The notes below the pieces were generated by a model. It had not been told where the DNA came from, searched no databases, and saw nothing but the letters and a program-made list of their open reading frames with translations. Source: Erysipelotrichaceae bacterium (GTDB lineage Bacteria; Bacillota_I; Bacilli_A; Erysipelotrichales; Erysipelotrichaceae). Taken from it: a stretch of 32,000 bases of DNA. The stretch spans positions 1,710,001 to 1,742,000 of the forward strand of contig OY781039.1 in the NCBI GenBank assembly GCA_963676105.1. Reading direction: 5' to 3'. The translations under genes were made by a program, and so were the position numbers. This document shows, piece by piece, positions 1,935 to 30,548 of the stretch. The first letter of the stretch is position 1; each line of letters opens with the position of its first letter.

Positions 1935-3506
1935 CTAGTCAACCTCGGTGACTGGGTTATAAATATAGTTAAATACAAATCCACCAGAATAAGGTTGACC
2001 TGTTTCAGGATCAATCAATATAAATGGCATATCACCAGCTTGCATTGGAACATATTCAACGGATGAATTTTGTGACATAAAGACATCCTTTGACACGATT
2101 GATCCGACTAGTGTTGCCAGGTTATTTAAGGTTACAAGTGCGTTTGGCGCATAGTATAATCCACCTGTTGATAAGTCAGATCCATTTGAGAAGTAGACAT
2201 TTTCGCCATTGGTTAAGATATAGCCATCAATTGCTGAGTTATTTCCAACATCTAAATTAATGAAATCAAACATAAACGAACCAGATAGTTTGGTGTTACC
2301 CGGGACTTCAAAAGTAGGAGGAGTTTCGCCAGCAACTTGTGGATGTTTAACATAAACAATTAAATTTTCAGGGTCGTTTATATTTCCAATCACAGATTTT
2401 AAACTAATATCACCTAGAATAAGTGGCAATGGGGAACTATCACGCACGTATATTTCGAGTTTACCTGTTCCAACAAAATTTATAGCACCAGACAGATTCA
2501 AACTATCAGTTACGATTAATGTATCGCCAGTGACATTAATGGTGACAGGGTTTGATAAATCAGCATCTGTAATACTAAAGCTTGGAACATAGTAGCCACC
2601 TTCTTCACCTGTACTTGGCGAGATATTATATGTATAACCACTTGCCCCATCTGAAATAATGGATCCAGCACTATTAACGAGGAAGTTTGCATCAGTTAAT
2701 AAAGGTAGTTTTGGAATACTAGCTTGTGCCATGACAGTATCAACTCTTTCATCGATTTCAACAAATGAAATGATGGGTAGCTCTTCATCAATTAGTGAAA
2801 AGTCAAGTTGGCTTAGTGGGGCACCACTTACTACATCTGCATCTGCATCAGGCAAAAGATAGATAGTACCAGTTACATCGGCTTGTCCTGTCAATGTGAT
2901 TGCCCCAGTGGTTGTATCATAGGTAGCGATATCAGCCGTGACATCTTCGTCATTTGTGAAAACAACGGCATTATTTTGAATGGTAATACTTCCATCAACT
3001 AAGATAGCTTTATCGGTTGAAAAACCAGCACCTGTCGCTTTCGCATATTGCAGTTGTACAACACGACCTAAAGTACGAGATTCACCATCAACATAACCTT
3101 CAGAAATAATGGTATAGATATGATATCCTTCTCCATCAACAGTGGTTGTGATTGTAATATCGGCATATGCATTGCCAATATCAGTAGAAAATGGATCTAA
3201 AGATTCTGAGTCAATACTAGTTCCATTAATGCTTGTGGCTAAGGCATCCATTGAACTATTAAAACTTGTTGGATTAATGCTTGGTGAAGCTAATAAGGTG
3301 TTGATTTCATCTTCAAATTGACCAAGGGTTAGATTAATCCCTGATTCAGCTACATAGAAAGCGGTCGCATGTGAATCGGCTTTATTTTGATTATTAAAGT
3401 TCCCAATGGTCACATAGAAAAGACCACCTAAAAGGATGGTTAATACCATAAAATACATGACCACGATTAGTAGGGAAACACCCTGTTTATTTTTTAGAGT
3501 TTTCAT
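1935..3506 (-). CDS. Large minor-pilin-like protein with a PilX_N/GspK-like N-terminus and a long Thr/Gly/Asp-rich, probably beta-rich, body
   Basis: 523-aa ORF. The N-terminus reads MKTLKNKQG|VSLLIVVMYFMVLTILLGGLF...AFYVAESGINL, that is, a hydrophobic pilin-like helix without Glu+5 followed by the AFY.AE.G motif typical of the PilX N-terminal domain. Its start overlaps the upstream gene fragment by ATGA (3503-3506). Confidence 0.6.
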   Translation of the reverse strand: MKTLKNKQGVSLLIVVMYFMVLTILLGGLFYVTIGNFNNQNKADSHATAFYVAESGINLTLGQFEDEINTLLASPSINPTSFNSSMDALATSINGTSIDSESLDPFSTDIGNAYADITITTTVDGEGYHIYTIISEGYVDGESRTLGRVVQLQYAKATGAGFSTDKAILVDGSITIQNNAVVFTNDEDVTADIATYDTTTGAITLTGQADVTGTIYLLPDADADVVSGAPLSQLDFSLIDEELPIISFVEIDERVDTVMAQASIPKLPLLTDANFLVNSAGSIISDGASGYTYNISPSTGEEGGYYVPSFSITDADLSNPVTINVTGDTLIVTDSLNLSGAINFVGTGKLEIYVRDSSPLPLILGDISLKSVIGNINDPENLIVYVKHPQVAGETPPTFEVPGNTKLSGSFMFDFINLDVGNNSAIDGYILTNGENVYFSNGSDLSTGGLYYAPNALVTLNNLATLVGSIVSKDVFMSQNSSVEYVPMQAGDMPFILIDPETGQPYSGGFVFNYIYNPVTEVD

Positions 3507-3760
3507 GTGTTAACAGGTTCTCCTTCAAATGGTAAGCGTAAATAGATTGTTTGATGGATATCATTATTAGTGATGCGGGCATCGGGAATCGCAATTATGT
3601 CAATTGTTAAATAAGGAGTTTGAGGATCATCTTCATTTAAAGTAATATCAAAGTCTTCGATTTGTTGACTTGTGATTTGACTTGAAATAACAACATCATC
3701 TGGATCATACAAAGTTCGAGTAATCGTAGAGTCTGAAATATTAAAGGTATAGACAGCGTA
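3503..3760 (-). pseudogene. C-terminal fragment (85 codons plus stop) of a minor prepilin gene split by the IS element
   Basis: The tracked ORF 3503..3802 starts inside IS sequence: its first 13 codons, MHICIVYFGGILS, are IS-encoded. Codon 14 (N, 3763-3761) is the duplicated target triplet. From codon 15 (YAVYTF...) the frame continues exactly from fragment 5556..5840 once the IS is removed. Confidence 0.85.
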
Positions 3761-3763
3761 ATT
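3761..3763. repeat. Left copy of the 3-bp target site duplication (ATT)
   Basis: ATT lies immediately before the IS terminus TGAT... at 3764. An identical ATT lies immediately after the other terminus at 5556-5558. Confidence 0.7.
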
Positions 3764-3797
3764 TGATAAGATCCCTCCAAAGTAGACAATGCAAATA
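3764..3797. repeat. IS left terminal inverted repeat
   Basis: TGATAAGATCCCTCCAAAGTAGACAATGCAAATA, compared with the reverse complement of 5522-5555, TGATGCGACCCCTGTCAAGTAGACAGTGGAAATA. Confidence 0.75.
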
Positions 3798-3825
3798 TGC
3801 AAAGTTGAAAGGAGGGATTTTTTAT

Positions 3826-4539
3826 ATGGGACGTAAGAATAAATATAGTCCTGAAATTAAAGTAGAAATAGTAAAAACTTTTTTAAGAGGTGAAAAATCA
3901 GTGAACCAACTAGGATTTGAATTTAATGTTCGAGCTTACACGGTTCGTCAATGGATACATAGTTATCAAAAATATGGCAGAGAAATTTTTGAAGATAAAG
4001 AACGAAACAAACGCTATACAAAAGAACTAAAAGATAATGTCATACACGAATATCTTAACGGCGTTGATTCCTTAGAAGGATTGCGTATTAAGTATCAAAT
4101 ATCATCCCATTCCATCATATTAAATTGGCTTAGAAAGTATAATAACCATATAGAACTGAAGGACTATGATCCTAAGGGAGATGTTTATATGGCTGGAAGA
4201 AGGAAGACAAATTTAGCAGAGCGGGTTGAAATTGTAGAGTATTGTCTCAAACACAATCGTGAATTTAAAAAGGCAGCTGAAGTTTATCAAGTGTCGTATT
4301 CTCAAGTTTATCAATGGGTGAAGAAATATGAACTTGAAGGACAAGATGGTTTACTTGATCGACGTGGTAAACGAAAACTAGAAGATAGTTTAAGTGAAGT
4401 TGAAAAGCTGCAGAAGAAGATAGATCAACTCGAGAAACAATTAGAACTTAAAGAGAATGAGAACACACTCTTAAAAAAAGTGAAGGAATTCGAAAGGAGG
4501 CGGTATTCAGTCAAGTTAGACAAGAAGCGAAATACTTAG
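3826..4539 (+). CDS. IS3-family transposase OrfA (helix-turn-helix DNA-binding protein with a C-terminal coiled coil)
   Basis: ATG at 3826 preceded by GAAAGGAGGG. The tracked start at 3763 is a TTG that overlaps the left inverted repeat and is rejected. Sequence MGRKNKYSPEIKVEIVKTFLRGEKSVNQL...YQVSYSQVYQWVKKYELEG...LEKQLELKENENTLLKKV has two HTH-like segments and a leucine-zipper-like tail, as in IS3/IS150-type OrfA. Confidence 0.9.
   Translation: MGRKNKYSPEIKVEIVKTFLRGEKSVNQLGFEFNVRAYTVRQWIHSYQKYGREIFEDKERNKRYTKELKDNVIHEYLNGVDSLEGLRIKYQISSHSIILNWLRKYNNHIELKDYDPKGDVYMAGRRKTNLAERVEIVEYCLKHNREFKKAAEVYQVSYSQVYQWVKKYELEGQDGLLDRRGKRKLEDSLSEVEKLQKKIDQLEKQLELKENENTLLKKVKEFERRRYSVKLDKKRNT
4473..4480 (+). 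other. Programmed -1 ribosomal frameshift slippery site (A AAA AAG) producing the OrfAB transposase
   Basis: AAAAAAAG lies near the end of orfA. I checked the -1 frame codon by codon from 4479 to the ATG at 4584 and found no stop (SEGIRKEAVFSQVRQEAKILSIQSCQRDYHWSIHWM...). orfB is in frame -1 relative to orfA (start coordinates 3826 mod 3 = 1, 4584 mod 3 = 0). Confidence 0.7.
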
Positions 4540-4583
4540 CCATACAAAGCTGTCAAAGAGATTATCACTGGAGTATACATTGG

Positions 4584-5483
4584 ATGTGTCAGGTATTAGA
4601 GATACCGAGATCTAGTTACTATAAGTGGTTAAAACGCACTGAAACAGCACAAGAGAAGGAAAACCAACAAATTGCACAATGGATACTTGAGTATGATGAA
4701 ATATTCGATCATATCTATGGTTATCGACGTATGACAATAGCCATTAATCGATTGAATCATAAAAATTATAATCAAAAACGTGTTCGTCGTATGATGCGAC
4801 TATTAGGGATAAAATCCGTCATACGTAAAAAGAAGAATAACTATCATAAGTCAGAACCTGAGATTACTGCTGAGAATATCTTAGCGAGAGATTTCTTCGC
4901 TAGTGCACCTAATCAAAAGTGGGTCACAGACGTAACTGAGTTTAAAGATCGACATACAAAACAGAAACTCTATTTAAGTGCCATCTTAGATTTATATGAT
5001 CGAAGTATCGTTGCGTATGAGATAAGTGGACGTAATAATAATCAACTTGTATTCAACACTTTTGAGAAAGCAATGAGTCTTAATCCAGGTGCGAAACCAC
5101 TGTTTCATTCAGATAGAGGATTCCAATATACAAGTAAAGTATTCAAATATAAGTTAGAAACAAATGGATTGACACAAAGCATGTCTAGAGTTGGCCGCTG
5201 TATCGATAATGGACCGATTGAAGGTTTCTGGGGCATTATTAAATCAGAGATGTATCATCATCATAAATATGAAAACCTACAAGATTTAAACCAAGCTATT
5301 CATAAATATATGTCCTTCTACAATCATCAAAGATTTCAAAGCAGATTCAATAATCAAACACCTATTGAAGTTAGAGAAGCAGCTTTAAATAGTCAGGTCA
5401 TTCCACAATACCCAATTAAACCAAATAATCGAATCATAAAATACTATGAAACCATAAAACAAAATCAAGAAATAAGAAACTAA
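4584..5483 (+). CDS. IS3-family transposase OrfB (DDE/rve integrase catalytic domain), probably expressed as an OrfAB fusion
   Basis: DDE triad context: WVTDVTEF, HSDRGFQYTS and DNGPIEGFWGIIKSE. The N-terminal MCQVLEIPRSSYYKW matches the HTH_21-like region of IS3 OrfB. Confidence 0.92.
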   Translation: MCQVLEIPRSSYYKWLKRTETAQEKENQQIAQWILEYDEIFDHIYGYRRMTIAINRLNHKNYNQKRVRRMMRLLGIKSVIRKKKNNYHKSEPEITAENILARDFFASAPNQKWVTDVTEFKDRHTKQKLYLSAILDLYDRSIVAYEISGRNNNQLVFNTFEKAMSLNPGAKPLFHSDRGFQYTSKVFKYKLETNGLTQSMSRVGRCIDNGPIEGFWGIIKSEMYHHHKYENLQDLNQAIHKYMSFYNHQRFQSRFNNQTPIEVREAALNSQVIPQYPIKPNNRIIKYYETIKQNQEIRN

Positions 5484-5521
5484 AAAAGATGACCCATTTT
5501 CTGGATCATCTAATCTTTACT

Positions 5522-5555
5522 TATTTCCACTGTCTACTTGACAGGGGTCGCATCA
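5522..5555. repeat. IS right terminal inverted repeat
   Basis: See the left repeat. It ends ...GCATCA at 5555. Read on the minus strand, the terminal TCA supplies the TGA stop that truncates the pilin fragment. Confidence 0.75.
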
Positions 5556-5558
5556 ATT
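5556..5558. repeat. Right copy of the 3-bp target site duplication (ATT)
   Basis: Identical to 3761-3763 and directly abuts the IS end. Confidence 0.7.
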
Positions 5559-5840
5559 TGTACCGTTTGTTGTATTGCCAAGTGTAATGGTGATGGCTGT
5601 TTCGGATGCTACTCGTGCATAAAAATCAGTATTAATAACATATCGTCTGATATCTTTTTCAATATATGTTGCAGAAAGTCTTAAGTCTTCTTGTGACACG
5701 GATTCACTATATTCATCACTAAAATAGGTCGTTGAGAAGACCACAATTTGAGTTAGGGTGGTGAAGACGATTACTAAGATAACAGAAGCCACCACCACTT
5801 CGATTAACGTAAAGCCTTTCTTATCCATCTTATTCTCCAA
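5556..5840 (-). pseudogene. N-terminal fragment (95 codons) of a minor prepilin gene split by the IS element
   Basis: Classic type IV prepilin signal MENKMDKKG|FTLIEVVVASVILVIVF (G-1, F+1, E+5). The reading frame is terminated by a TGA formed from the IS terminus (5555-5553). Confidence 0.85.
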
Positions 5841-7150: not shown

Positions 7151-8224
7151 ATGGATATGATGAAAAAACTAATAATATTTTTAATAATCATACTAGTATC
7201 TGGATGTAGTGTTACAGTTTCACCTAAAAAAATTGTGGTAGTGGACGATTTTTCAGAGACTGGTTCTAGTTTTGCATTACTTGCCTATAGTGGGGTAGAA
7301 ATGGCATTAAGTGATTTAGATATCACTGAAGAATATACCCTGGATTTTGTGGATATTTCAGAATATGCATCAATCGATGATCTAGAACAAGCTATTCTAG
7401 ATATAAATGCAGACGTATACATTGGTCCTAATTTTTCAAGTGTTTTAGCTGATGTTTATCCGATTTATAAAAATAATGAGTTATTTGCGTTTATTCCTGG
7501 CGCATCTGCAGACACTATCAATGAAGAAGATGACTATGTTTTTAGATTTTTAACATCAACCAGTGAACAAGCACGTCAGTTTGCGAATTTAATGAATGAT
7601 CGTTATCAAACTGGCTCAATCATTTATGAAAATATCAACTTAGCTTATTCGCAGGTTATCAGTGAATCTATTCAATCTCAAGCAAGTAATGTCATCAATA
7701 GTATTGATCCTATTTCAGAAGATATGAGTGCAGAAGATTTAATCGCATCTATTGATCCTAATTCAGAAGCAATTGTTTTGATTTCGAGTGCTAAGACGGC
7801 AGGTATTGTCATTCAAAGACTCAGGAGTTCTGGTATTGATATCCCGATTTATATGTCTGGTTGGGCACAAAGTAATACTTTAATTGAGTTTGTTGGAGAC
7901 TATACTGAAAATTCTTTTATATTCTCAAATGGTTATCCATCTAAAGAAGATAACTATAATGTTTTCAAAGATCGTTATTTAGAAGAGTATGGTACAGTGA
8001 CAGGCCATATTGCCATGTATTCATATGATTTCATGGTTATTCTAAATGATTATATTAAAGCTGGAAATAGTTTTGATAAAGAAGCTTTTAAAACTTATAT
8101 GACAAATAATCCACATCAAGAAGGTTACTTATACAGTATAGAACTAAACGAATACGGCATGGGTACACAAACGATGCAGCTGCTAGAAATTAAAGATGGT
8201 GAGTTTGTTCAAGCATCACATTAA
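7151..8224 (+). CDS. Lipoprotein, periplasmic-binding-protein type I fold (LivJ/LivK, Peripla_BP_6-like solute-binding protein), paralog 1
   Basis: Signal peptide plus lipobox MMKKLIIFLIIILVSG|C. The ADVYIGPNFSSV...FAFIPGASADTINEEDDYVFRF pattern matches the 'viGp.sS...ip.isp.at.p.l....yvFR' core of Leu/Ile/Val-type binding proteins. The GAAGGAG ribosome binding site at 7141-7147 suggests the real start may be the ATG at 7157. Confidence 0.8.
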   Translation: MDMMKKLIIFLIIILVSGCSVTVSPKKIVVVDDFSETGSSFALLAYSGVEMALSDLDITEEYTLDFVDISEYASIDDLEQAILDINADVYIGPNFSSVLADVYPIYKNNELFAFIPGASADTINEEDDYVFRFLTSTSEQARQFANLMNDRYQTGSIIYENINLAYSQVISESIQSQASNVINSIDPISEDMSAEDLIASIDPNSEAIVLISSAKTAGIVIQRLRSSGIDIPIYMSGWAQSNTLIEFVGDYTENSFIFSNGYPSKEDNYNVFKDRYLEEYGTVTGHIAMYSYDFMVILNDYIKAGNSFDKEAFKTYMTNNPHQEGYLYSIELNEYGMGTQTMQLLEIKDGEFVQASH

Positions 8225-8387
8225 ATATAGAATTTGAGAATTTAATTTATATAAATTGTTTGTTTAAAAAACTTATTCACATTCATTGTTTCTAGCTAAG
8301 TAAAAGTACTGTTATGCATAAATATCTCTATAGATAGTGAATAATATTATTAACAGGAACGTGTCTTATAGAAAGGGAGTTTATCGT

Positions 8388-9461
8388 ATGTTAAAGAAAC
8401 TTATCATCGTAATAACCTTAGTTTTAGTCGCAAGTAGTTGCTCACAAACAGTGATTAATCGACCTAGACTTGTGGTTGTCGGAAACTTTTCTGAAACAGG
8501 TGGATTTGCGCCACTGGCTTTTAGTGGTGTTGAATTTGCATTGGAAAAACTCGAGATTGAGGATGAGTACATCTTAGACCATCTAGACATCACTCTTTAT
8601 CCTAGTGAAGAAGAATTAGAAGCTGCCATTCTGGAAAGCGATGCAGATATTTATATCGGACCGAGTTATTCTAGTGACTTACCAACGGTTTATCCAGTGT
8701 ATAAGGCAAATGAACTCTTTGCCTTTATCCCATCAGCGTCTGCGGATACGATTAATGAAGAAGATGACTATGTCTTTAGATTCATTACCTCTACACATGA
8801 ACAAGGAGTTCAATTTGCTCGCTTAATGGAAGTAAATCATTATGATGATGTCGCCATTATCTATGAGGATGCGAATCTTGCCTATTCACAAGTGTTAAGT
8901 GAAGGAATTGAAGCTGAAATACCTGAACTCGTAAGTTCTCTAAACACAACAAGCGCAGAAACAAGTGCGGATACATTAGTTTCATATATTAGTGATGAAA
9001 CAGATGCGATTATATTAGTTATGAGCGCCAAGACAGCGGGTATCACTGTTCAACGTTTACGAAGTGTCGATATTAATATACCAATCTATATTTCATCTTG
9101 GGCTCAAAGTAATACCTTGATTGAGTTTGTTGCAGATTATACAGAAAATCTATATGTTTACTCAAATGGTTTTCCTTCAAAAACAAGTAATTATTTATCT
9201 TTGAATGAAGAATATTTAGCGTTTTATGGATCTTCAATGGGTTTGCCTGCTATGTTTGCTTATGACTTTATAGTTGTTTTAAATGATTATGTTAAAGCAG
9301 GACATGATATTGAAAAAGATGAATTTAAATCATATATGTTAGAAAACCCTCAACAAGAAGGTTATCTATTTGATTTAGAACTCAATGAATATGGCATGGG
9401 AACACAAGCTATGCAGTTAGTAGAAATAAGAGATGGGGTGTTTGTGAATGCGTATGATTAA
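8388..9461 (+). CDS. Lipoprotein, LivJ/LivK-like solute-binding protein, paralog 2
   Basis: Start moved to the ATG at 8388 (AAGGGAG ribosome binding site at 8373-8379); the tracked 8337 is a GTG. Lipobox MLKKLIIVITLVLVASS|C. It aligns end to end with paralog 1, roughly 60% identical by eye, and is the same length (357 aa). Its 3' end overlaps the kinase start by 14 nt. Confidence 0.8.
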   Translation: MLKKLIIVITLVLVASSCSQTVINRPRLVVVGNFSETGGFAPLAFSGVEFALEKLEIEDEYILDHLDITLYPSEEELEAAILESDADIYIGPSYSSDLPTVYPVYKANELFAFIPSASADTINEEDDYVFRFITSTHEQGVQFARLMEVNHYDDVAIIYEDANLAYSQVLSEGIEAEIPELVSSLNTTSAETSADTLVSYISDETDAIILVMSAKTAGITVQRLRSVDINIPIYISSWAQSNTLIEFVADYTENLYVYSNGFPSKTSNYLSLNEEYLAFYGSSMGLPAMFAYDFIVVLNDYVKAGHDIEKDEFKSYMLENPQQEGYLFDLELNEYGMGTQAMQLVEIRDGVFVNAYD

Positions 9462-11115
9462 AGTTAAGCTGGGGCGTTATTTTCTAATTACAACCATACT
9501 TCAATTTGCGATTATTATTGCCTTAATGAGTGTGTTAATTATTCGCTATATTGCCCAGCCTTATGAATATCGACAATTACTCAATATTCATGATCAACTG
9601 AGATATTCGATTGCCTTAACAGAGAGTCATTTAGATACACAGACCTTTGTGGTTAATCGACTTGCCAATCATGATGAAAGTGGTAAAAACTTAGATGAAA
9701 TGGCTAAGAGTCTCTTTGTAGATGAAAACAATGTCTTAGATGCTTTGGTTGTTTTAAATAGTGACTGGATAGTGGAAGCACAGTATCCTAACACTGAACT
9801 CATTGGTTTAAATTTAGCCTCTCATTTTCAAAATTTAGACTTTAGTGATGAAGGTATTGACTACTTCTCAGGGGATGATGGCGTGCATGTTGTTAAACGT
9901 GCATATGGTAAATACTATGTGGGTATTTTTGATTTAGATCTTCAAGATATCTTCGAATCAGATTTAGATATCCTAGCTTCTTCTATTTTCTATGTAACAG
10001 ATGGTAATGGTAATGTCTTGGATAGTAATAAGACCTTTATCACCAATCCAAAATATGAAGTTCTACAAGAAAATATCATTGAGTTTGAAGGTCAAACCTT
10101 ATATACACGAAACATCGTTATGAATAACGAAGAATATATTCTTAAACAAAGAGCTTTTGAAACCTTGAATATGACCTTCAATATGATGATTCCAATCGAA
10201 GTTTATCAACAAGCAACTTACACATATCAAAGTATTATGGCGTTCGCTTTTGGTGGGGTTGTGCTTCTTAGTTTAATGTTCTACTTAAATCTTAGAAAAC
10301 AAATTACAATACCATTAGAAAGACTTACGGATATCTTTAAATATGACAAACTTAGAGATATGAGTAATGAAGAATTAAAGGATACCAATATTTTAGAAAT
10401 TAACTCATTGAACTTTCAATTTAAGAAATTAATCAATCAACTTATTAGAAAAGAACAAGAGATGAATGAATTTGTCTATATTGCATCTCATGATCTTCAA
10501 GAACCACTTCGAGTGATTAGTTCATACATTAATATTCTAGAAATGGACTATGAAGATAAGTTTGATGAAGATGGGCATAAGTATCTCAATTACGTTGTTG
10601 ATGGGGCTAAACGGATGAAGAATCTGATTGTGGCCTTACTGGATTACTCGCGTATCATCAACGCAAAATTAGAATTCAAAGATACAGACTTAAATGAGAT
10701 ACTAAAGATGGTTGAAAACAATCTTGAAGTAAGTATTAAGGAAAAGGAAGCGACAATTATTAGTGATGACTTGCCTGTTGTTAAAGCACATGAACAAGCC
10801 ATGATACAACTCTTCCAAAATCTCATTGCGAATTCAATAAAGTTTTGTAAAGACAAACCAGAAATACAAGTACGCTACGTTAATAATCAATTAAGATTTA
10901 TCGATAATGGTATCGGAATAGCTGAAGAAGATATTCCAAAATTATTTAAGCCCTTCAAGCGATTAAACTCTGCTGCTGAATATAAGGGAACAGGTATTGG
11001 TCTAGCCGTAGTATTTAAAACCTGTGAAAGTCATGGATGGAAAGTACACATAGAGTCAGAACTTGGGAAAGGAACAACCTTCGTGGTTGATTTAGGTGAA
11101 AAATATGGATCGTAA
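9448..11115 (+). CDS. Sensor histidine kinase: TM, about 220-aa extracytoplasmic (Cache-like?) domain, TM, HAMP-like linker, HisKA, HATPase_c
   Basis: Two TM segments (YFLITTILQFAIIIALMSVLII and IMAFAFGGVVLLSLMFYLNL). HAMP-like ITIPLERLTDIF...EINSLNFQFKKLINQL. H-box FVYIASHDLQEPLR (His348). N-box QLFQNLIANSIKF. G-boxes IDNGIGI and GTGIGLA. Confidence 0.9.
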   Translation: MRMIKVKLGRYFLITTILQFAIIIALMSVLIIRYIAQPYEYRQLLNIHDQLRYSIALTESHLDTQTFVVNRLANHDESGKNLDEMAKSLFVDENNVLDALVVLNSDWIVEAQYPNTELIGLNLASHFQNLDFSDEGIDYFSGDDGVHVVKRAYGKYYVGIFDLDLQDIFESDLDILASSIFYVTDGNGNVLDSNKTFITNPKYEVLQENIIEFEGQTLYTRNIVMNNEEYILKQRAFETLNMTFNMMIPIEVYQQATYTYQSIMAFAFGGVVLLSLMFYLNLRKQITIPLERLTDIFKYDKLRDMSNEELKDTNILEINSLNFQFKKLINQLIRKEQEMNEFVYIASHDLQEPLRVISSYINILEMDYEDKFDEDGHKYLNYVVDGAKRMKNLIVALLDYSRIINAKLEFKDTDLNEILKMVENNLEVSIKEKEATIISDDLPVVKAHEQAMIQLFQNLIANSIKFCKDKPEIQVRYVNNQLRFIDNGIGIAEEDIPKLFKPFKRLNSAAEYKGTGIGLAVVFKTCESHGWKVHIESELGKGTTFVVDLGEKYGS

Positions 11116-11551
11116 ACAAGAAGCAGTCATTTTATTAGTCGAGGATAATCCTGCTGATATCGATTTGATTAAGTATACATTTAAAAAGAATAAGATTGAG
11201 AATAGACTCATAACCATCATGGATGGCCAATCAGCGATTGACTACATTGTTGATCATAAAGATTGTGGTGAAGGTTACTTTGAACCAGATCTCATTATTT
11301 TAGACATCAATCTGCCAAAAAGAAGTGGACTTGAAGTCTTGGAAGTGATTAAAAATGATGATGATGCAAAAGTCATTCCAGTTGTCATGTTGACGACAAG
11401 TGCATCACCAACAGATATTGACGAAGCTTATCAACACTATGTGAATGCTTACTTAGTAAAACCTGTAGAAATGCATGACTTCATTGATGTTATTACTAAA
11501 CTTGAAGACTTCATGATTAAGGTCATAAAACGTCCGCTTAGAAAGGGGTAA
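11105..11551 (+). CDS. Single-domain response regulator (CheY/Rcp1-like receiver)
   Basis: VILLVEDNPADIDL (acidic pocket), DLIILDINLPKRSG (phospho-Asp), VVMLTTS and AYLVKP. The ATG at 11105 with AGGTGA 5 nt upstream is preferred over the tracked GTG at 11096. It overlaps the kinase 3' end. Confidence 0.88.
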   Translation: MDRKQEAVILLVEDNPADIDLIKYTFKKNKIENRLITIMDGQSAIDYIVDHKDCGEGYFEPDLIILDINLPKRSGLEVLEVIKNDDDAKVIPVVMLTTSASPTDIDEAYQHYVNAYLVKPVEMHDFIDVITKLEDFMIKVIKRPLRKG

Positions 11552-11554
11552 TTT

Positions 11555-12385
11555 ATGCGTAAACTCGATGTTGTGATTCTAGAAGATTTAGATACTGACT
11601 TTGATTTAGTTGATATCTATCTTAAGAAAAGTAAACAATATTTAATTAAAACAACTCGATTCACACTTCTTAAAGATCTCTTAAATGCATATGAATCTAA
11701 AACACTTAGAGGTGATGTCATTCTTTTAGATTTAAATCTACCTGATTCGGATTATCATCATACTCTTTATCGTGTTTTGAATACGATTATTGATATTCCA
11801 ATTATTGTTTTAACATCCATGGATCTAAAGTATGGATATGATGCGATTAAATTAGGTGCTCAAGATTTCATTAATAAAACAGAACTAAAAAATGAATACT
11901 TAGATTACAAGTTATTGTTTGCGATGGAACGCTCTGAACAACTAAAGCATCTTGAAAGTATTGCCTTTATGGATTCTGAAACCAGTCTTCATACATTAGC
12001 TTTTCTAAGAACCTATATCGAACAACAAGTTAAACAAGGTGTTCATCATTTCAGTTTGATTCGTTATGAATTTAAAACCGATAATAAAGAAATGTTTGAA
12101 GATTTAAGTTTATATGTCGCATCTGAACTACGTTATACGATTTTAGATTTCAAACTCATCGCGGCTGTTGATTCAAATCGTGTCTTCTATGTTTTGGTTG
12201 AAGATGGCGAAGAAGCAATTTCTCAAGTCGATAATTATTTGAAGAGTGTACTATCGAATGCCAAAGATCAAAATGAAGCATTGAATTATCAAGTCTTTAA
12301 AAACGCGATTACATGCACAGGTGATTTGAACTTTGAATCATGCATAAAAGACCTTGAAAAGGATAAAAAAGAGGTCAAGTTATGA
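11555..12385 (+). CDS. Response regulator: receiver domain plus a C-terminal degenerate GGDEF-like domain (catalytic motif lost)
   Basis: The receiver residues are intact (VVILEDLD, DVILLDLNLPD, IVLTS, DFINK). The C-terminal half follows GGDEF spacing: DSETSLHTLAFL for D.LTGL.NR.AF, FSLIRYEFK for the iDiD.FK position, and AAVDSNRVFYVLV where R.GGDEF..LL is expected. Confidence 0.7.
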   Translation: MRKLDVVILEDLDTDFDLVDIYLKKSKQYLIKTTRFTLLKDLLNAYESKTLRGDVILLDLNLPDSDYHHTLYRVLNTIIDIPIIVLTSMDLKYGYDAIKLGAQDFINKTELKNEYLDYKLLFAMERSEQLKHLESIAFMDSETSLHTLAFLRTYIEQQVKQGVHHFSLIRYEFKTDNKEMFEDLSLYVASELRYTILDFKLIAAVDSNRVFYVLVEDGEEAISQVDNYLKSVLSNAKDQNEALNYQVFKNAITCTGDLNFESCIKDLEKDKKEVKL

Positions 12386-13119
12386 ACTATGAAAATGCCT
12401 TAAAGTTATCCTCTGATCAAGTCAGTCATTTATTGCTGGATGTCTTAAAGGATAAGAAATTATGCGATAGTATCATTGATGCTTCACTTAATCTATTAAA
12501 GTGCAATGTAGAAAATGATGATGAACTTCAAAAACGTAAAGTAGCGGTTTTAGATGCCTTAAAATTGATTTCCAAGAAGATTGATTTTAGAAATGAAAAA
12601 ACATTAATTATAGAAGTTATTCACACCTGGTATTTACATTTAGGTGAAAAATGCATTGAAGATCGAACAGTTAATACTCGATTACGAGAGTTAACCAGCA
12701 TTTATTTTGATGGCTGGAATATGTTGATGAATGCTGATCATAAAGTAAGAGTGGATAAACTTACCTCTAACTTTATGGTGAAATCGGAAGGCATTAGTAC
12801 TGAACGCAATCAATACATGGAAATGTTTGAATCACTGCCATTATCTGTGTTTATCTTAGATGAAAATGGTGACTTAGATTTATTAAACCTAAGAGCTGTT
12901 GAATTCTACAATAAACTTTTAGAACTACAATCATTCAATGATTTTGATAATAATTTATTGAAATTCTTAAATGTGAATGGTTTTTGTGATGATGTGAATA
13001 AAGTTGTATGTAATGGTGCATTGCCAGAATTTGAAAATGCTTATTTTGAATTGAATAAAAATAGTTGGAACTACAACAATAAAAAAGGTTACATCTTAAT
13101 TATCTACGTACATAAATAG
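12382..13119 (+). CDS. Hypothetical cytoplasmic protein: helical N-terminal half plus a PAS-like C-terminal segment
   Basis: 245-aa ORF with an ATGA overlap onto the upstream gene. The C-terminal ERNQYMEMFESLPLSVFILDENGDLDLLNLRAVEFYN resembles the start of a PAS fold. No catalytic motif was recognised. Confidence 0.6.
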   Translation: MNYENALKLSSDQVSHLLLDVLKDKKLCDSIIDASLNLLKCNVENDDELQKRKVAVLDALKLISKKIDFRNEKTLIIEVIHTWYLHLGEKCIEDRTVNTRLRELTSIYFDGWNMLMNADHKVRVDKLTSNFMVKSEGISTERNQYMEMFESLPLSVFILDENGDLDLLNLRAVEFYNKLLELQSFNDFDNNLLKFLNVNGFCDDVNKVVCNGALPEFENAYFELNKNSWNYNNKKGYILIIYVHK

Positions 13120-13132
13120 AAATCGGGGACGT

Positions 13133-14800
13133 ATGAATTTTAACTTGATTGAAGGATTAAATAATTTCGACCAGCAATGGCAAAACCTTTCTGAACTCAT
13201 AAATAAAAACATTGGACAACATAATTTTAAATGTCTAATTTTTTCGTCGAGCGCGGATGAATCTATCTTTCAATATACCAGTAATGATTCAAATGATTAC
13301 TCAGCCCTTAGAGAATATATAGAAGAATTTGGTTCAACTAAAAACGCAAGTACCACCGGCAAAGCGCATATTATCCAAGGTAAAGAAAAGAATATAATGA
13401 TTGCGATTGTCGCAAGCGTTTTTACCCATTCTCAACATGTTGAAGGGGCCTTTTATTTCGAATTTGAAAACAAAAATAAAGATTATATTCAGCTATTTAA
13501 CGATAGTTTGATTCCTTTGAATTTATATTCTCTAACATATTGGATACAAAGAGAAATTGAAGTCTATGAAAATCTCTTTTATACCATTGATTTATTTACA
13601 GAGCTTATCGCAAAAAGAGATCGATTTATGCCTTATCACATGAGTAATGTGGCTAATCGAAGTATGTTGTTGGCAAATCGTTTAAATCTAAGTCGACGAG
13701 ATCGTTTCTTGCTTTATATTGCGGCACTTTTACATGATATCGGCAAGATAGATATTGATGAGAGAATCATCAATAAACCTGGACGTTTAACCGAAGAAGA
13801 ATACGAAACAATGAAAGATCATCCACGTAAAGGTTATGATATAACTTGGGCTGAACTTCATGGGATAAAATATTTAGAAGAAGTACCAGAAATCATTCTT
13901 CATCATCATGAGCGTTATGATGGTAAAGGTTATCCAGATCAACTAAGTGCTAATGATATTCCTTATTTAAGCCGAGTTTTATCGATTGCAGATACCGTTG
14001 ATGCGATGATTTCAGTACGCTCTTATAAAAATCAATTTACTAAACAAGAAATTATTAATGAACTGGATAAATTCTCGGGCTCACAATTTGATCCTGAAAT
14101 TGCTAAAGTTATGATTGATGTTTTAAGTGAAACCAATGAAAAGAGCGTAAACAATCAATTAAAAGTTGCGAACTTTATCCCTAAAGCGTCAATCGTATTA
14201 GAAAAAGAAAATGGTGAAACTTCTCACTTTATGGGTAATATTGTCATCAATGAAAATATTGGTAAGTTTATCATTCACCAAAAAGAAGGTAAATCTTTAG
14301 AAAAGACTTATCATAATTTCGCCTACATTGGCTACTTTATGTATGGTGAGTTTGTACAATACCGTGCTAAAGTTCAATACACTTTAAAAAACCAAATTAT
14401 TCTTTCAAGTTTTATTTATCAACCACTTGATCGATTAGCCTTTACTGCCTATTATTCCAATGCCTATGTATCAACTAGTGATAGTTATGAAGAAGTTCAA
14501 ATCATTAAATTAGGAGCACGTAACTTAATTATTGAAATTGACATTACCTCATCTTTATATATCAAGGAACACCAAAAATTGAATTTATACTTTAGTACTC
14601 ATAAAGATTTCTTCATGTCAGATTATAATGTCATTTATGAAGTGGTTCGTAAGTACATCTTTGATAATCGAATTATCATTCATTTAGAATCCAAAGATAT
14701 TGCGCCACGAATTCGTGATGAAATTATGCGGACCATCTTTGATAAACAACTTAATGATGCGAATATTCAACCAAATGTTGCGATTGGACAAAAAAACTGA
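13133..14800 (+). CDS. HD-GYP domain c-di-GMP phosphodiesterase with an N-terminal GAF-like region and an about 200-aa C-terminal extension of unknown function
   Basis: HD-GYP signature: HMSNVANRS...LLHDIGKIDI...MKDHPRKGYDI...ILHHHERYDGKGYPDQL...LSIADTVDAMISVRSYK. Confidence 0.88.
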   Translation: MNFNLIEGLNNFDQQWQNLSELINKNIGQHNFKCLIFSSSADESIFQYTSNDSNDYSALREYIEEFGSTKNASTTGKAHIIQGKEKNIMIAIVASVFTHSQHVEGAFYFEFENKNKDYIQLFNDSLIPLNLYSLTYWIQREIEVYENLFYTIDLFTELIAKRDRFMPYHMSNVANRSMLLANRLNLSRRDRFLLYIAALLHDIGKIDIDERIINKPGRLTEEEYETMKDHPRKGYDITWAELHGIKYLEEVPEIILHHHERYDGKGYPDQLSANDIPYLSRVLSIADTVDAMISVRSYKNQFTKQEIINELDKFSGSQFDPEIAKVMIDVLSETNEKSVNNQLKVANFIPKASIVLEKENGETSHFMGNIVINENIGKFIIHQKEGKSLEKTYHNFAYIGYFMYGEFVQYRAKVQYTLKNQIILSSFIYQPLDRLAFTAYYSNAYVSTSDSYEEVQIIKLGARNLIIEIDITSSLYIKEHQKLNLYFSTHKDFFMSDYNVIYEVVRKYIFDNRIIIHLESKDIAPRIRDEIMRTIFDKQLNDANIQPNVAIGQKN

Positions 14801-14816
14801 GAATTCTCAGTTTTTC
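14791..14816. terminator. Bidirectional rho-independent terminator shared by convergent operons
   Basis: AAAAAACTGAGAATTCTCAGTTTTT is a perfect palindrome with an A-run on one side and a T-run on the other. Both stop codons (TGA at 14798-14800 on plus, TGA at 14809-14807 on minus) lie inside the stem. Confidence 0.8.
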
Positions 14817-15013
14817 TTTGGGTGATCTTTACGATACTCATTGATTAAATTACTTTGATGGCGACTCAGAAATGAATCATCGCACTGACATGATTTATTA
14901 CTCGAATGAGCACAACCAATACATTTAATCCCGCGTTGTCTTGACCTGATAATAGGAATACTTGCGAGTACAACAATGATCACAATGATGCCCCCAACAA
15001 TGATATTTTCCAT
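14807..15013 (-). CDS. FeoB-associated Cys-rich membrane protein
   Basis: 68 aa: an N-terminal TM (MENIIVGGIIVIIVVLASIPII) followed by a Cys cluster (CIGC...SCQC). It overlaps the feoB stop by 1 nt (TAATG). Confidence 0.75.
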   Translation of the reverse strand: MENIIVGGIIVIIVVLASIPIIRSRQRGIKCIGCAHSSNKSCQCDDSFLSRHQSNLINEYRKDHPKKN

Positions 15014-16959
15014 TATGCAAGAACCTTTCTTTTACGATAACCAACGCTATAGAAAGCGATAAAGATAAGTATTATGACTATTGTGCCAGCTGTAAAACCA
15101 CTCTGTAGATGACCATAGAATATCAGTGATCCCAATTGATAAAAGAGAAACGCGATACTATACCCCATACTAAATTGCAGGGATAAAGCGATGCCTAACC
15201 ATTTCTTAGAGCGTAGCTCAGCATTCATTGCGCCAATAGCCGCAAAACATGGTGGAGTGAATAAGTTAAAGACTAAGAAAGCTAAAGCCGCAATGGTGCT
15301 TAGACCCATAATGGATACGATTTCATTTTGACCACCAATTAAGGCAAATTCTTCAGTATTAATAAAGTTCGTAATATTAAAGACAACAGCTAGAGTTCCA
15401 ATGACATTTTCCTTAGCAATAAAGCCTGTGATTGCGGCTGACGCAAGTTGCCATGTTCCGAATCCTAGAGGAATAAGTAAGAATGAAACAGGTGTCGCAA
15501 GGCTAGCGAGAATACTTGTATCTGCAGCTCCTTGTTCAACAACCGATAAGTTCCAAGTGAATGTCTGCATAATTTGAATTACCACATTTGAAACCAGAAT
15601 AATGGTGAAAGCTTTAATAATGAAAGCCTTCGCTTGAGAATACATGGATCTTAAGGCATTGATGGCTGAAGGGATACGATATGTTGGAAGTTCAATGATA
15701 AAGTAATCTGTTTTTGAATCATCTCCGGTGACCCATCGAATCACAAAAGCAGCCACAAAGATAACTCCCATCGCTAAGAAATACATGGCAGTCCCAACCC
15801 AAGGTGATTCATTAAAGAATACACCTGCAAATAAGGCAATAACAGGTAACTTAGCCCCACATGGCATAAATGGGGAAAGGATGGCAGTTGTACGTCTTTG
15901 ATTATCGTTTCTTATCGTACGTGTACTCATGACACCTGGTACAGCACAACCTGTTGAAACAACCATAGGGATAATGGATCTTCCAGATAGTCCAACCTTT
16001 TTCATATAAGGGTCCATTAGTACGGCAACACGCGCCATGTAACCACTATCTTCAAGTAAAGCTAACATAAAGAACAACGTCATGATAAGTGGTAAGAAGC
16101 CAACAATGGCACTGACACCACCAATGATTCCATCTAACAACAAGGCTTTAAGGAATGGGGATATGCCATCACCTAGCAGTCCTTCAATAAAAACATAGAA
16201 CGCATCAATCCAACTGACAAAGGTATCAGCCATCAGTGGACCTATATAGGTTTGTGATATGGCGAATACAACATATAAAATGAGCGCAAAGACAGGTAAA
16301 CCAAACCATTTATTAGCCACTACTCGATCTAATTTATCTTGGAATTGATGGGTGGGTGTATAAACATCTCTTTTTTCACAGTGTTTAACCAAAGCATTTA
16401 TCCAGTCATATCGAGCTGTGTCATCCTCAAATTCAACAAGTTTAGGTTGATAAATTTGTGGGGTTTGCGCAAAGTAATGAACAGTATCCATTAGATCATG
16501 TAAACCTGATCGATTAAGTGAAGAAACAGGCACAATAGCTACATTGAGATCTTCAGCTAAATGTTGAATATCGATTTCAAGACTTGGATGTTCAGTCAAA
16601 TCCCATTTGTTTAAGGCAATAATACTAGGTATACCTAAGGCTAAAATTTGCGTGCTTAAGAAAAGCGAACGATTTAAATTTGATGCATCTAAAACATTGA
16701 TAATTAAATCAGGCTTGGCATATTTAATCGCTTCAAAAGTAATCTTTTCATCTGCGCTAAAAGGAGATAGAGAATAAGCACCAGGTAAATCGATAATATT
16801 AACGATTTGATCCTTAACATACTTTGGTTTAAGCATGCCTTCTTTCGCATCCACCGTTACACCAGGCCAGTTTCCGACATATTCATAATGACCAGTTAAG
16901 GCGTTGAATAGGGTTGTTTTACCACTATTTGGATTTCCAACTAATACAATATTCATCAC
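15013..16959 (-). CDS. feoB: Ferrous iron transporter FeoB (N-terminal GTPase plus polytopic permease)
   Basis: G1 GNPNSGKTTLFNALTG, G2/G3 WPGVTV...DLPGAYSL and G4 NKWD, followed by gate-motif-rich TM regions (GCAVPGVM, MPCGAKLPV). Confidence 0.95.
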   Translation of the reverse strand: MMNIVLVGNPNSGKTTLFNALTGHYEYVGNWPGVTVDAKEGMLKPKYVKDQIVNIIDLPGAYSLSPFSADEKITFEAIKYAKPDLIINVLDASNLNRSLFLSTQILALGIPSIIALNKWDLTEHPSLEIDIQHLAEDLNVAIVPVSSLNRSGLHDLMDTVHYFAQTPQIYQPKLVEFEDDTARYDWINALVKHCEKRDVYTPTHQFQDKLDRVVANKWFGLPVFALILYVVFAISQTYIGPLMADTFVSWIDAFYVFIEGLLGDGISPFLKALLLDGIIGGVSAIVGFLPLIMTLFFMLALLEDSGYMARVAVLMDPYMKKVGLSGRSIIPMVVSTGCAVPGVMSTRTIRNDNQRRTTAILSPFMPCGAKLPVIALFAGVFFNESPWVGTAMYFLAMGVIFVAAFVIRWVTGDDSKTDYFIIELPTYRIPSAINALRSMYSQAKAFIIKAFTIILVSNVVIQIMQTFTWNLSVVEQGAADTSILASLATPVSFLLIPLGFGTWQLASAAITGFIAKENVIGTLAVVFNITNFINTEEFALIGGQNEIVSIMGLSTIAALAFLVFNLFTPPCFAAIGAMNAELRSKKWLGIALSLQFSMGYSIAFLFYQLGSLIFYGHLQSGFTAGTIVIILIFIAFYSVGYRKRKVLA

Positions 16960-16964
16960 TACAC

Positions 16965-17243
16965 CTATATAAACTGTGCAACTTTAATGCACTGTGCTAA
17001 CTTTCTATCAATGGAGTATCTTGCTCCAAATATTTCAATAATATAGTTATCTCCTAGATTAGAGATAACGGTTAATCGTTGTTTTGGATAACAGCCCAAG
17101 GTAAATAAAAACTGTCTTAGATCAGCATCATCACTATCCACTGTTTCAATGGAATATTGGGTATTAAGGGGAACTTGAGTGATATCGAATACATCTGGAT
17201 GTACAAAACGATCACGTCCCATATGTTTACGATGTCTATTCAT
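16965..17243 (-). CDS. feoA: FeoA-family protein (SH3-like ferrous iron transport accessory protein)
   Basis: 92 aa immediately upstream of feoB. The LGCYPKQRLTVISN...IIEIFGARYSIDRKLAQCIKV pattern is typical of FeoA. Its start overlaps the upstream regulator stop (ATGA). Confidence 0.8.
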   Translation of the reverse strand: MNRHRKHMGRDRFVHPDVFDITQVPLNTQYSIETVDSDDADLRQFLFTLGCYPKQRLTVISNLGDNYIIEIFGARYSIDRKLAQCIKVAQFI

Positions 17244-17647
17244 TTGATATCCTCTAGCGCAAAACGCATTTCATCTTTTATATTGATATTTAACTTTTTC
17301 TCAATCGCCGATAACATATCGTCTGTAATAATATGTTCCATTCGACAAGCGTTCTCTTCAGCTTCCTCTGCACTTAAATCTAAATCAAGTTCTAGATATT
17401 TTGTGAGCACTTTATGTTTGTATAAGATATGTGTCGCAAGCTCTCTTCCTGAGTCAGTTAAAAAAACAGGTCCGTAGTTTTCCTGTGTAATATAATCTTT
17501 CTTTTTTAAGCTGTTAATGGCTTTTGTGACAGAAGCCTTACTGACCTGTAGTAAATCAGCGATTTCTTTAACATGTGCATGACCTTCGTTGTTCTCTAAT
17601 AGAAGAATTGTTTTTAGGTACATTTCACTTGAATCATGATGTTTCAT
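17240..17647 (-). CDS. DtxR/MntR-family metal-dependent transcriptional regulator
   Basis: SEMYLKTILLLENNEGHAHVKEIADLLQVSKASVTKAINSLKKKDYI (winged HTH), followed by HILYKHKVLTKYL...EENACRMEHIITDDM (metal-binding/dimerisation helices). The ATG at 17647 is preferred over the tracked TTG at 17653. Confidence 0.85.
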   Translation of the reverse strand: MKHHDSSEMYLKTILLLENNEGHAHVKEIADLLQVSKASVTKAINSLKKKDYITQENYGPVFLTDSGRELATHILYKHKVLTKYLELDLDLSAEEAEENACRMEHIITDDMLSAIEKKLNINIKDEMRFALEDIK

Positions 17648-17651
17648 GGGC

Positions 17652-17673
17652 AAAGTTTACCATGGTTAACTTT
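17652..17673. promoter_or_regulatory. Near-perfect 22-bp palindrome directly upstream of the dtxR-feo operon; candidate metalloregulator operator
   Basis: AAAGTTTACCATGGTTAACTTT differs from its reverse complement at one symmetric pair of positions. It ends 5 nt before the regulator ATG. Confidence 0.45.
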
Positions 17674-30149: not shown

Positions 30150-30548
30150 ATGAACTTTAAAGAAATTCTAATGAAACATGACATTCAACCATCAAACTAT
30201 CGAATTAAGGTTTTAGAATGTTTAAGTCATTATGAAGAACATCCAACAGCGGAAGAGCTCTATCAAAGTTTATCAGATGTTTTTCCAACGATATCAAAGA
30301 TGAGTGTCTATAACACAATCGAAGTTTTACTTAATGCTGGTCTAATTAAACGGATAACCATTGAAAACAATGAAGTACGTTATGACAGTATGTTAGAAAA
30401 CCATGGTCACTTTAAATGTGAATCCTGTGGAAAAGTATTTAACTTCGACATTGATATGGATCACTTACCATTTAAGGGTTTAGAGAACTTTGAGATTGAT
30501 AGTAAGGATGTGTACTTTAAAGGTATTTGTCCAGATTGTAATCATTAA
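30150..30548 (+). CDS. Fur-family metalloregulator, PerR-like
   Basis: Winged HTH (YRIKVLECLSH..HPTAEELYQSL...SKMSVYNTIEVL), the regulatory-site HGH, and the structural Zn site CESC...CPDC. The PerR call, rather than Fur or Zur, rests on the Per-box-like operator and the downstream dps. Confidence 0.8.
   Translation: MNFKEILMKHDIQPSNYRIKVLECLSHYEEHPTAEELYQSLSDVFPTISKMSVYNTIEVLLNAGLIKRITIENNEVRYDSMLENHGHFKCESCGKVFNFDIDMDHLPFKGLENFEIDSKDVYFKGICPDCNH

Follow-up and report, generated by a model that had tools for sequence, protein, structure and literature searches.

We analysed a window of 32,000 nucleotides (nt) of an Erysipelotrichaceae bacterium (contig OY781039.1, positions 1,710,001 to 1,742,000; positions below are those of the window) that contains a cassette of seven co-oriented genes. 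These genes encode two paralogous solute-binding proteins (SBP1 and SBP2), a sensor histidine kinase (HK), a single-domain receiver (REC), a receiver with a degenerate GGDEF-like domain (REC-X), a small protein with a PAS domain and an HD-GYP phosphodiesterase (Table 1). We read the cassette as a binding-protein-dependent two-component system with post-translational control of cyclic di-GMP (c-di-GMP) hydrolysis as output, and give this reading a probability of about 0.55. It is carried by a six-gene core that is kept in the same order in three lineages, by an overlap of the SBP and kinase genes in all of them and by the complete set of catalytic motifs in the HD-GYP enzyme.

Gene order and its conservation

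The six-gene core SBP-HK-REC-REC/dGGDEF-PAS-HD-GYP is found in the same order in the window and its close relative L002, a strain that is 95-97% identical and carries the same seven genes, and in two further lineages, L001 and L003. The latter two (4.7-Mb genomes) have one SBP gene, followed by the genes for kinase, REC, REC-dGGDEF protein, PAS protein and long HD-GYP protein. Orthologues are 30-66% identical across the three lineages, which argues against recent transfer among them, and the genes flanking the cassette differ completely. In each of the three lineages the stop codon of the SBP gene lies within the kinase gene, an overlap of 14-17 nt by which the two genes are translationally coupled. 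Because order and overlap are kept at 30-66% identity, the genes behave as one device. A first-pass annotation of the window had proposed such a single sensory device, with a duplicated receptor pair at its entrance. The comparison of gene neighbourhoods speaks for the device, but not for the pair as a core feature: since L001 and L003 have a single SBP, the tandem is a lineage-specific duplication of the SBP of the six-gene core.

No Liv-type ATP-binding cassette (ABC) permease or ATPase gene adjoins the cassette in the window, as had been noted before, and none is present within 10 kb of it in L001 and L003. SBP orthologues were detected only beside the cassette kinase and never beside LivHMGF genes. 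The records of L001, L002 and L003 are ERZ21878204, ERZ21878193 and ERZ21878180; their contig names resemble those of metagenomes assembled from long reads. Possibly the cassette is restricted to a single habitat or study.

All open reading frame (ORF) coordinates of the first-pass annotation and the five downstream junctions were reproduced. From SBP2 onward the junctions span -14 to +13 nt: the kinase gene overlaps the end of the SBP2 gene by 14 nt (9448 vs 9461), REC overlaps the kinase gene by 11 nt (11105 vs 11115), REC and REC-X are 3 nt apart (11551/11555), REC-X and the gene of the PAS protein overlap by 4 nt as ATGA (12385/12382) and 13 nt separate the latter from the HD-GYP gene (13119/13133). 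An internal promoter is possible in the gap between the two SBP genes. At its downstream end the cassette runs into a palindrome that holds the stop codons of both the HD-GYP gene and a convergent small ORF associated with FeoB (68 codons). The folding energy of the palindrome is -11 kcal/mol on one strand and -13 kcal/mol on the other (z -2.8 and -4.7). The shared bidirectional terminator seen there earlier is plausible, but it is a modest one, and a consensus terminator scan of the window did not call it. Rfam and tRNA scans of the window, c-di-GMP riboswitches included, gave no match, and no DNA-binding domain is encoded within the cassette.

Table 1 Features of the cassette, its neighbours and related loci
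Feature	Position	Strand	Evidence or remark
Cassette of seven co-oriented genes	7151-14800	+	ORF positions
SBP1, lipoprotein, type I HAAT/LivJ family, 357 amino acids (aa)	7151..8224	+	Peripla_BP_6, E 7e-12
SBP1-SBP2 intergenic gap, 163 nt	8225..8387		terminator-like hairpin not found; fold z-scores +0.4 to +0.7
SBP2, paralogue of SBP1, 357 aa	8388..9461	+	Peripla_BP_6; stop 14 nt inside kinase gene
HK: transmembrane segment 1, extracytoplasmic domain, transmembrane segment 2, linker, HisKA, HATPase_c	9448..11115	+	Pfam
HK extracytoplasmic sensor domain, aa 34-262, tentatively dCache-like tandem PDC	9547..10233	+	Foldseek
REC, single-domain receiver, CheY/Rcp1-like	11105..11551	+	Response_reg, E 3e-19
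REC-X, 276 aa: receiver (aa 1-115), degenerate GGDEF-like domain (aa ~134-263)	11555..12385	+	Response_reg, E 5e-9
PAS protein, 245 aa, small cytoplasmic sensor type: helical N-terminal part, C-terminal PAS (aa ~140-245)	12382..13119	+	PAS_8
HD-GYP phosphodiesterase, 555 aa, three regions	13133..14800	+	HD_5, E 5e-36 (124 bits)
YcgR/MotI-like PilZN and PilZ-like module of the HD-GYP protein	14150..14797	+	AlphaFold2 (AF2) and Foldseek
A7-CTGAGAATTCTCAG-T5 palindrome	14790-14816		terminator-like on both strands
Cys-rich FeoB-associated ORF, 68 codons (Feo unit)	14807-15013	-	start overlaps FeoB stop; own stop inside shared palindrome
FeoB (Feo unit)	15013-16959	-
FeoA (Feo unit)	16965-17243	-
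DtxR-type repressor (Feo unit)	17240-17653	-
Second cassette type around the HD-GYP family	L084:5808-11108; L090:2916-8344
PAS-protein architecture as part of hybrid histidine kinases (HisKA-HATPase-REC, HPt optional)	L093:7863-9914; L095:590-2983; L094:2240-3870

The encoded proteins

SBP1 and SBP2 are 59% identical in an end-to-end alignment and score 46 and 44 bits with Peripla_BP_6 (Pfam cut-off 31.7 bits); a four-sequence SBP profile matches the LivJ-type structures 4gnr and 3td9 (1e-14) as well as LivJ of Escherichia coli (1z15). Their earlier description as two paralogues with a type I binding-protein fold therefore holds. Both have a signal peptide followed by a lipobox cysteine (VSGC and ASSC), and in all four SBPs a hydrophobic N terminus precedes VSGC, ASSC, LAGC or LTGC. 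A role as cytoplasmic regulator like AmiC was considered and rejected, since every SBP has a lipoprotein signal peptide. The ligand preference of the HAAT/Peripla_BP_6 family is Leu/Ile/Val (PMC10443332) and, by family preference, a branched-chain-type amino acid may serve as a first guess for the ligand. No relatives beyond the paralogue and the copies in the cassettes were found in a word-indexed search, in a scan of GTDB species or in a scan of JGI metagenomes, the two scans being pattern-based and of low sensitivity. The word-indexed search with SBP1 returned only SBP1 itself and its paralogue and missed the SBPs of L001 and L003, so that rarity estimates derived from it are lower bounds.

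The kinase has transmembrane segments at aa 8-39 and 260-282 with about 220 extracytoplasmic residues between them, a linker of about 55 aa, HisKA (aa 339-403, 44 bits) and HATPase_c (aa 449-549, 81 bits). The three lineages do not differ in the H-box SHDLQEPL or in the N, G1 and G2 boxes, the invariant catalytic positions being H348, N458/N462, DNGIGI and GTGIGL. The architecture given in the first-pass annotation stands except for the HAMP domain, whose profile did not match the kinase at E ≤ 0.1. More generally, of the families that had been expected Peripla_BP_6, HisKA, HATPase_c, Response_reg and HD_5/HD were matched, but HAMP, Cache and GGDEF were not. In the extracytoplasmic domain there was no Pfam match to Cache even at E ≤ 10. 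An AF2 model of aa 34-262, made from an alignment of just four sequences, has a pLDDT of 54 and thus low confidence; all of the top 50 Foldseek matches of this model in the PDB are dCache/tandem-PDC domains (E 3e-5 to 5e-3, TM-score 0.3-0.4), and we tentatively regard the domain as dCache-like. It is rare. Queried with the kinase, a collection of 5.8 billion proteins gave only three full-length relatives (an exact look-up of the kinase sequence had no result, although entry P0001 of the collection is identical to the kinase of the window), and phmmer with the sensor domain against 1.84 billion representatives retrieved only the domain itself and P0129.

The kinase core (H-box SHDLQEPLR) and REC, on the other hand, form a very common type of adjacent kinase-receiver pair. 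A REC-pattern scan of GTDB species genomes gave 80 loci, usually with a kinase core of this type directly upstream of the receiver; SBP, PAS partner and long HD-GYP protein were found in none of these 80 loci. In at least four of them (L082, L028, L041 and L080) the pair is directly followed by a second receiver-output gene, in one case (L082) a true GGDEF. Because of these loci the order of kinase, single receiver and receiver-output gene is an established layout, and it is the output domain that has decayed in the cassette.

Response_reg was matched in both receiver genes, as their earlier assignment had implied. REC is 61-66% identical across lineages with E13/D14, D67, T97-98 and K119 invariant; in the receiver of REC-X the invariant positions are E10/D11, D59, T87 and K108. 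By residue content both receivers appear competent for phosphorylation. The C terminus of REC-X has no Pfam match to GGDEF, even at E ≤ 10, and the GGDEF position reads DSNRV, SENII or YQHHI. Residues 3-263 align to the true REC-GGDEF protein of L082 (Thermodesulfovibrionales; 27% identity, E 1e-14), with AAVDSNRVF opposite ARIGGDEF and FMDSETSLHT opposite LLDDLTGLHNR. An hhalign comparison with three GGDEF domains was in register and not significant, and a profile search of PDB sequences with the C terminus gave nothing meaningful. Because of the full-length alignment to a true REC-GGDEF protein, we regard the C-terminal domain as a probable relative of GGDEF domains that is predicted to be catalytically dead; the dead GGDEF after a receiver, already proposed in the first-pass annotation, is consistent with the replaced site.

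The PAS protein has the conserved stretch RNQYMEMFESLP..V..LDE.G. PAS_8 was matched in four of six family members, with a best E of 5e-4 and all below the Pfam cut-off (E 0.12 for the protein of the window itself), and a kinase-fused homologue in L093 exceeds the cut-off of PAS_4; the former label PAS-like is thus appropriate. A profile search of PDB sequences with the family gave nothing meaningful, and the N-domain (about 165 aa) has no Pfam family. The N-domain of one family member has a faint match (E 0.095) to a globin-like 'HisK-N-like' domain. The helical N-domain and the PAS domain are also found fused to the N terminus of hybrid kinases in high-GC metagenome contigs (L093, L095), and because the same architecture is fused to kinases, it marks the protein as a probable cytoplasmic input module rather than a mere adaptor.

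The HD-GYP protein consists of an N-terminal region (aa 1-150), a catalytic region (aa 154-323) and a two-barrel module (aa 340-555); the first and the last had gone unseen in the first reading. The motifs of active, c-di-GMP-specific HD-GYP domains are HD..GK, KPG, HHExh(D/N)GxGYP and RxY[K/R] (10.1101/2021.11.05.467447). The protein has HDIGK at 201, KPG at 215, HHERYDGKGYP at 258 and RSYK at 296, and the same complete set is present in the orthologues of L001 and L003. The enzyme retains all metal- and c-di-GMP-binding motifs, and together with the matches to HD_5/HD this agrees with its assignment as a phosphodiesterase. It has no receiver of its own. The N-terminal region is poorly conserved, without a meaningful Pfam match at E ≤ 10.

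The C-terminal module was modelled with AF2 from an alignment of 29 sequences (28 relatives) at a pLDDT of 88. The confidently modelled structure comprises two beta-barrels followed by a helix and has the PilZN-PilZ fold of the YcgR type. Foldseek returned MotI/DgrA (5vx6, E 4e-9), followed by MrkH, PlzA, VCA0042 and YcgR, and Pfam PilZ was not matched. Throughout the 29-member alignment RxxxR and (D/N)xSxxG are absent; in their place the family has P(T/L)DKxFS in the linker between the two domains and, on the strand, (I/V)KxGGD. Because both motifs are lost family-wide, the module is unlikely to bind c-di-GMP in the canonical way, and a canonical c-di-GMP-binding PilZ domain was dismissed on these motifs.

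About 28 proteins with the same C-terminal module, 545-580 aa long, were retrieved by a profile search with the HD-GYP protein. Members whose source is named are from Clostridia (Vallitaleaceae, Proteocatella, Clostridiales), and we consider them a previously unannotated subfamily of Clostridia-type bacteria with N-domain, HD-GYP and PilZN-PilZ-like module. Its genes occur in three contexts: in the SBP cassette, in a second cassette type (L084/L085 and L090) and alone. The second type comprises a kinase, a single receiver encoded in divergent orientation, a PAS-protein homologue of 291-292 aa (its gene overlaps the HD-GYP gene by 4 nt, which couples the two translationally in L084 and L090), the HD-GYP protein and an overlapping hemerythrin gene; SBP and REC-dGGDEF are absent, and the sensor domain of the kinase is unrelated. 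In L090 a second HD-GYP protein (568 aa) and a 288-aa hemerythrin protein are encoded 2 kb further on. The hemerythrin neighbours suggest an input of O2, NO or iron to the HD-GYP family. An SBP is present in all three lineages with the sensor domain of the cassette and in neither of the two loci of the L084/L090 type with the unrelated sensor. Apparently, the SBP travels with one particular sensor domain and the PAS protein with the HD-GYP enzyme. The output module is both older than the SBP cassette and more widely distributed.

Proposed mechanism, alternatives and precedents

In the mechanism that we propose, the ligand-loaded SBP would dock on the probably dCache-like sensor domain and shift the balance of kinase and phosphatase activity, as in LuxP-LuxQ, HptA-HptS and BasB-BasT. 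The phosphoryl group would then pass from the kinase to REC and to the REC-degenerate-GGDEF protein, and the phosphorylated receivers, themselves devoid of an enzymatic or DNA-binding output, could touch the PAS protein and/or the HD-GYP enzyme and thereby switch the degradation of c-di-GMP. The motif-less YcgR-like C-terminal module is a likely docking or autoinhibitory element, and the PAS protein, as the constant partner of the HD-GYP family, probably adds a second, intracellular input.

Several points weigh against this view. The 163-nt gap parts SBP1 from the remaining genes, and the single transcript of all seven is a putative one. The contact between SBP and kinase is proposed by analogy, and an ABC transporter encoded elsewhere in the genome may use the SBPs of the cassette. 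The low confidence of the sensor model (pLDDT 54) leaves the dCache label tentative, and dCache domains usually bind their ligands directly. Members of the HD-GYP family are also encoded alone, so the enzyme needs no kinase. Finally, the cassette is very rare, and the only three lineages that have it all come from ENA assemblies with neighbouring accessions, which makes the statistics of co-occurrence thin.

The kinase could, as an alternative, sense its ligand directly by the dCache-like domain, the SBP being an accessory (a modulator or second input) or mainly a co-regulated transport SBP for an ABC importer encoded elsewhere. Direct binding of small ligands is indeed a property of the dCache domains matched by the sensor model, transporter SBPs typically have the HAAT-family fold and several SBPs serve transport and signalling alike (PMC8050422). 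On the other hand, the SBP gene stops inside the start of the kinase gene in three lineages with no transporter genes within 10 kb, the SBP family was not detected outside the cassettes and, in our reading by eye, the aligned sensors appear to lack the Arg that follows YP...G.(N/D)L in ligand-binding dCache domains. We consider direct sensing unlikely. A different alternative concerns the output: HD-GYP enzyme, degenerate-GGDEF receiver and PilZ-like module might form a phosphorylation-controlled complex, a trigger enzyme or scaffold, that has one particular target, for example the type IV pilus machinery encoded nearby, and resembles the RpfG-GGDEF-PilZ complexes reported from Xanthomonas, instead of hydrolysing c-di-GMP in bulk. 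HD-GYP domains can signal by protein-protein contacts (10.1101/2021.11.05.467447), an HD-GYP, a dead GGDEF and a motif-less PilZ fold do come together in the cassette and, in the window as in L002, the cassette is directly preceded by type IV pilus genes. Yet the catalytic and substrate motifs of the HD-GYP domain are fully intact in all lineages, L001 and L003 have no pilus genes next to the cassette and the L084/L090 cassette type lacks the REC-dGGDEF gene; we consider this mode improbable.

That the seven genes are just packed neighbours without a common function is strongly disfavoured. The genome is rich in c-di-GMP genes, such as that for a 1572-aa PAS-GGDEF-EAL protein at 18501-23219, and the gap after SBP1 would fit chance packing, but the same six genes follow in the same order with tight junctions in three lineages (30-66%) with unrelated surroundings.

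Within the binding-protein-dependent reading it is tempting to speculate further on a self-contained, phosphorylation-gated HD-GYP 'signalosome', in which the intact enzyme is restrained by its own motif-less YcgR-like module and is released or targeted only once the PAS protein and the receiver with the dead GGDEF have assembled on it together with a phosphorylated receiver. We regard this version as a rather doubtful one. If it were true, extracellular signals from the SBP and intracellular signals from the PAS protein would be integrated by coincidence into a local removal of c-di-GMP, the two SBP paralogues would add a two-ligand logic in the lineage of the window, and a so far undescribed principle for the regulation of receiver-less HD-GYP enzymes would emerge.

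The concept is not new in kind; both halves have precedents and every part is from a known family. Stimulation of dCache-like receptors by SBPs is a recurrent theme, as seen in LuxP-LuxQ, HptA-HptS, NspS-MbaA, ScrB-ScrC and BasB-BasT (PMC8050422). BasB-BasT of Halobacterium salinarum (PMC8050422, Table 1) shares with the cassette a Peripla_BP_6 lipoprotein SBP encoded beside a signalling gene and not beside a transporter, and BasT, like the kinase of the cassette in our tentative assignment, has a dCache-like extracytoplasmic domain. In contrast to the cassette, this system is archaeal, has a single SBP, employs a methyl-accepting chemoreceptor that feeds CheA and has no c-di-GMP output. LuxP-LuxQ, HptA-HptS and XylFII-LytS (PMC8050422) resemble the cassette in that the gene of a dedicated, transporter-less SBP adjoins that of a sensor kinase; the sensor domains of LuxQ and HptS are of the dCache type, and XylFII-LytS is a Firmicute example (PMC8050422). 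However, their SBPs are from other families than those of the cassette (Peripla_BP_4 in the case of LuxP and XylFII), and the outputs of these three systems are transcriptional (LuxO, HptR, YesN), whereas a DNA-binding protein is absent from the cassette. NspS-MbaA and ScrB-ScrC (PMC8050422) convert an extracellular SBP signal into a change of c-di-GMP turnover, as proposed here. There, the SBP acts directly on a membrane-bound GGDEF-EAL enzyme with a dCache-like periplasmic domain, whereas in the cassette the path from the SBP to a soluble HD-GYP enzyme would lead through the kinase, both receivers and the PAS protein.

On the output side, a histidine kinase is also upstream of an HD-GYP enzyme in RpfC-RpfG. 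RpfG has its own receiver, whereas the HD-GYP enzyme of the cassette is encoded apart from the two receiver proteins and contains no receiver itself; the input is the diffusible signal factor (DSF) in the former and the SBP in the latter. RpfG-GGDEF-PilZ complexes have reportedly been found in Xanthomonas, and HD-GYP, GGDEF-type and PilZ-type modules come together there as in the cassette, with the difference that the GGDEF of the cassette is predicted to be dead and is fused to a receiver, and that enzyme and PilZ-like fold are parts of one polypeptide. ECA3548 of Pectobacterium atrosepticum (10.1101/2021.11.05.467447) likewise unites HD-GYP and a YcgR-like PilZN-PilZ in one polypeptide, but its HD-GYP is inactivated and its PilZ is a canonical c-di-GMP-binding one; arrangement and state are the reverse of those in the cassette enzyme, which combines an intact HD-GYP with a PilZ-like module that has lost its motifs. 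The structures that best match the C-terminal 216 residues of the HD-GYP protein, MotI/DgrA, YcgR, MrkH and PlzA, are free-standing c-di-GMP receptors with RxxxR and D/NxSxxG, whereas the module of the cassette is enzyme-fused and motif-less.

In the open-access literature we found no described system in which an SBP and a kinase are combined with two receivers on separate proteins, a PAS partner and an HD-GYP enzyme that lacks a receiver and has a degenerate PilZ module. The novelty of the composition, as anticipated in the first-pass annotation, is supported to this extent, but SBP-stimulated receptors and SBP-controlled c-di-GMP enzymes as such are known (PMC8050422). By analogy, the short list of SBP-stimulated receptors would gain with the cassette its second case of a Peripla_BP_6 protein.

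A fused sensor or receiver domain controls most HD-GYP enzymes. The control of receiver-less HD-GYP enzymes is poorly understood, and so are the roles of degenerate GGDEF and PilZ modules beside them. With its six or seven co-transcribable genes, the cassette is a compact test bed for the gating of a kinase by an SBP, whose ligand is open to screening, for phosphorylation-dependent control of an HD-GYP enzyme and for the interplay of such receiver-less enzymes with dead GGDEF domains and motif-less PilZ folds. In principle the cassette is not surprising.

Surroundings of the cassette

In L003 a PAS-GGDEF diguanylate cyclase with intact GGEEF is encoded on the same strand about 150 nt upstream of the SBP gene (L003:7503-8801). 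It is a possible antagonist of the HD-GYP enzyme; the gene is not at the corresponding position in the window or in L001.

Upstream of the cassette, the window has a type IV pilus cluster. A conserved link between this cluster and the cassette was considered and discarded, as the two are adjacent only in the window and in L002. An element of the IS3 family at 3767-5555 splits a pilin-like gene, of which remnants are left at 5556-5828 (-) and 3530-3766 (-). The ORFs of the element encode a helix-turn-helix transposase (3763-4539) and an rve integrase (4584-5483). The pilin-like gene is intact (171 aa) in L002, whose sequence is 97-99% identical here; residues 1-91 and 90-168 map to either side of the element. 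In the same cluster, a 523-aa DUF7305 protein (1935-3506, -) is only 50% identical to its counterpart in L002. Because the flanking DNA is 97-99% identical, we consider the gene hypervariable and pilus-associated; the adjoining 144-aa pilin-like gene is 72% identical.

Downstream, a Feo iron-uptake unit (14807-17653, -) converges on the cassette, and a gene of the Fur family is located at 30150-30548. The c-di-GMP protein of 1572 aa mentioned above (+ strand) is encoded 3.7 kb from the cassette. It is cytoplasmic and consists of PAS, GGDEF, EAL, hemerythrin, GAF, further PAS and a second GGDEF domain, and thus appears to be a very large multi-input c-di-GMP enzyme.

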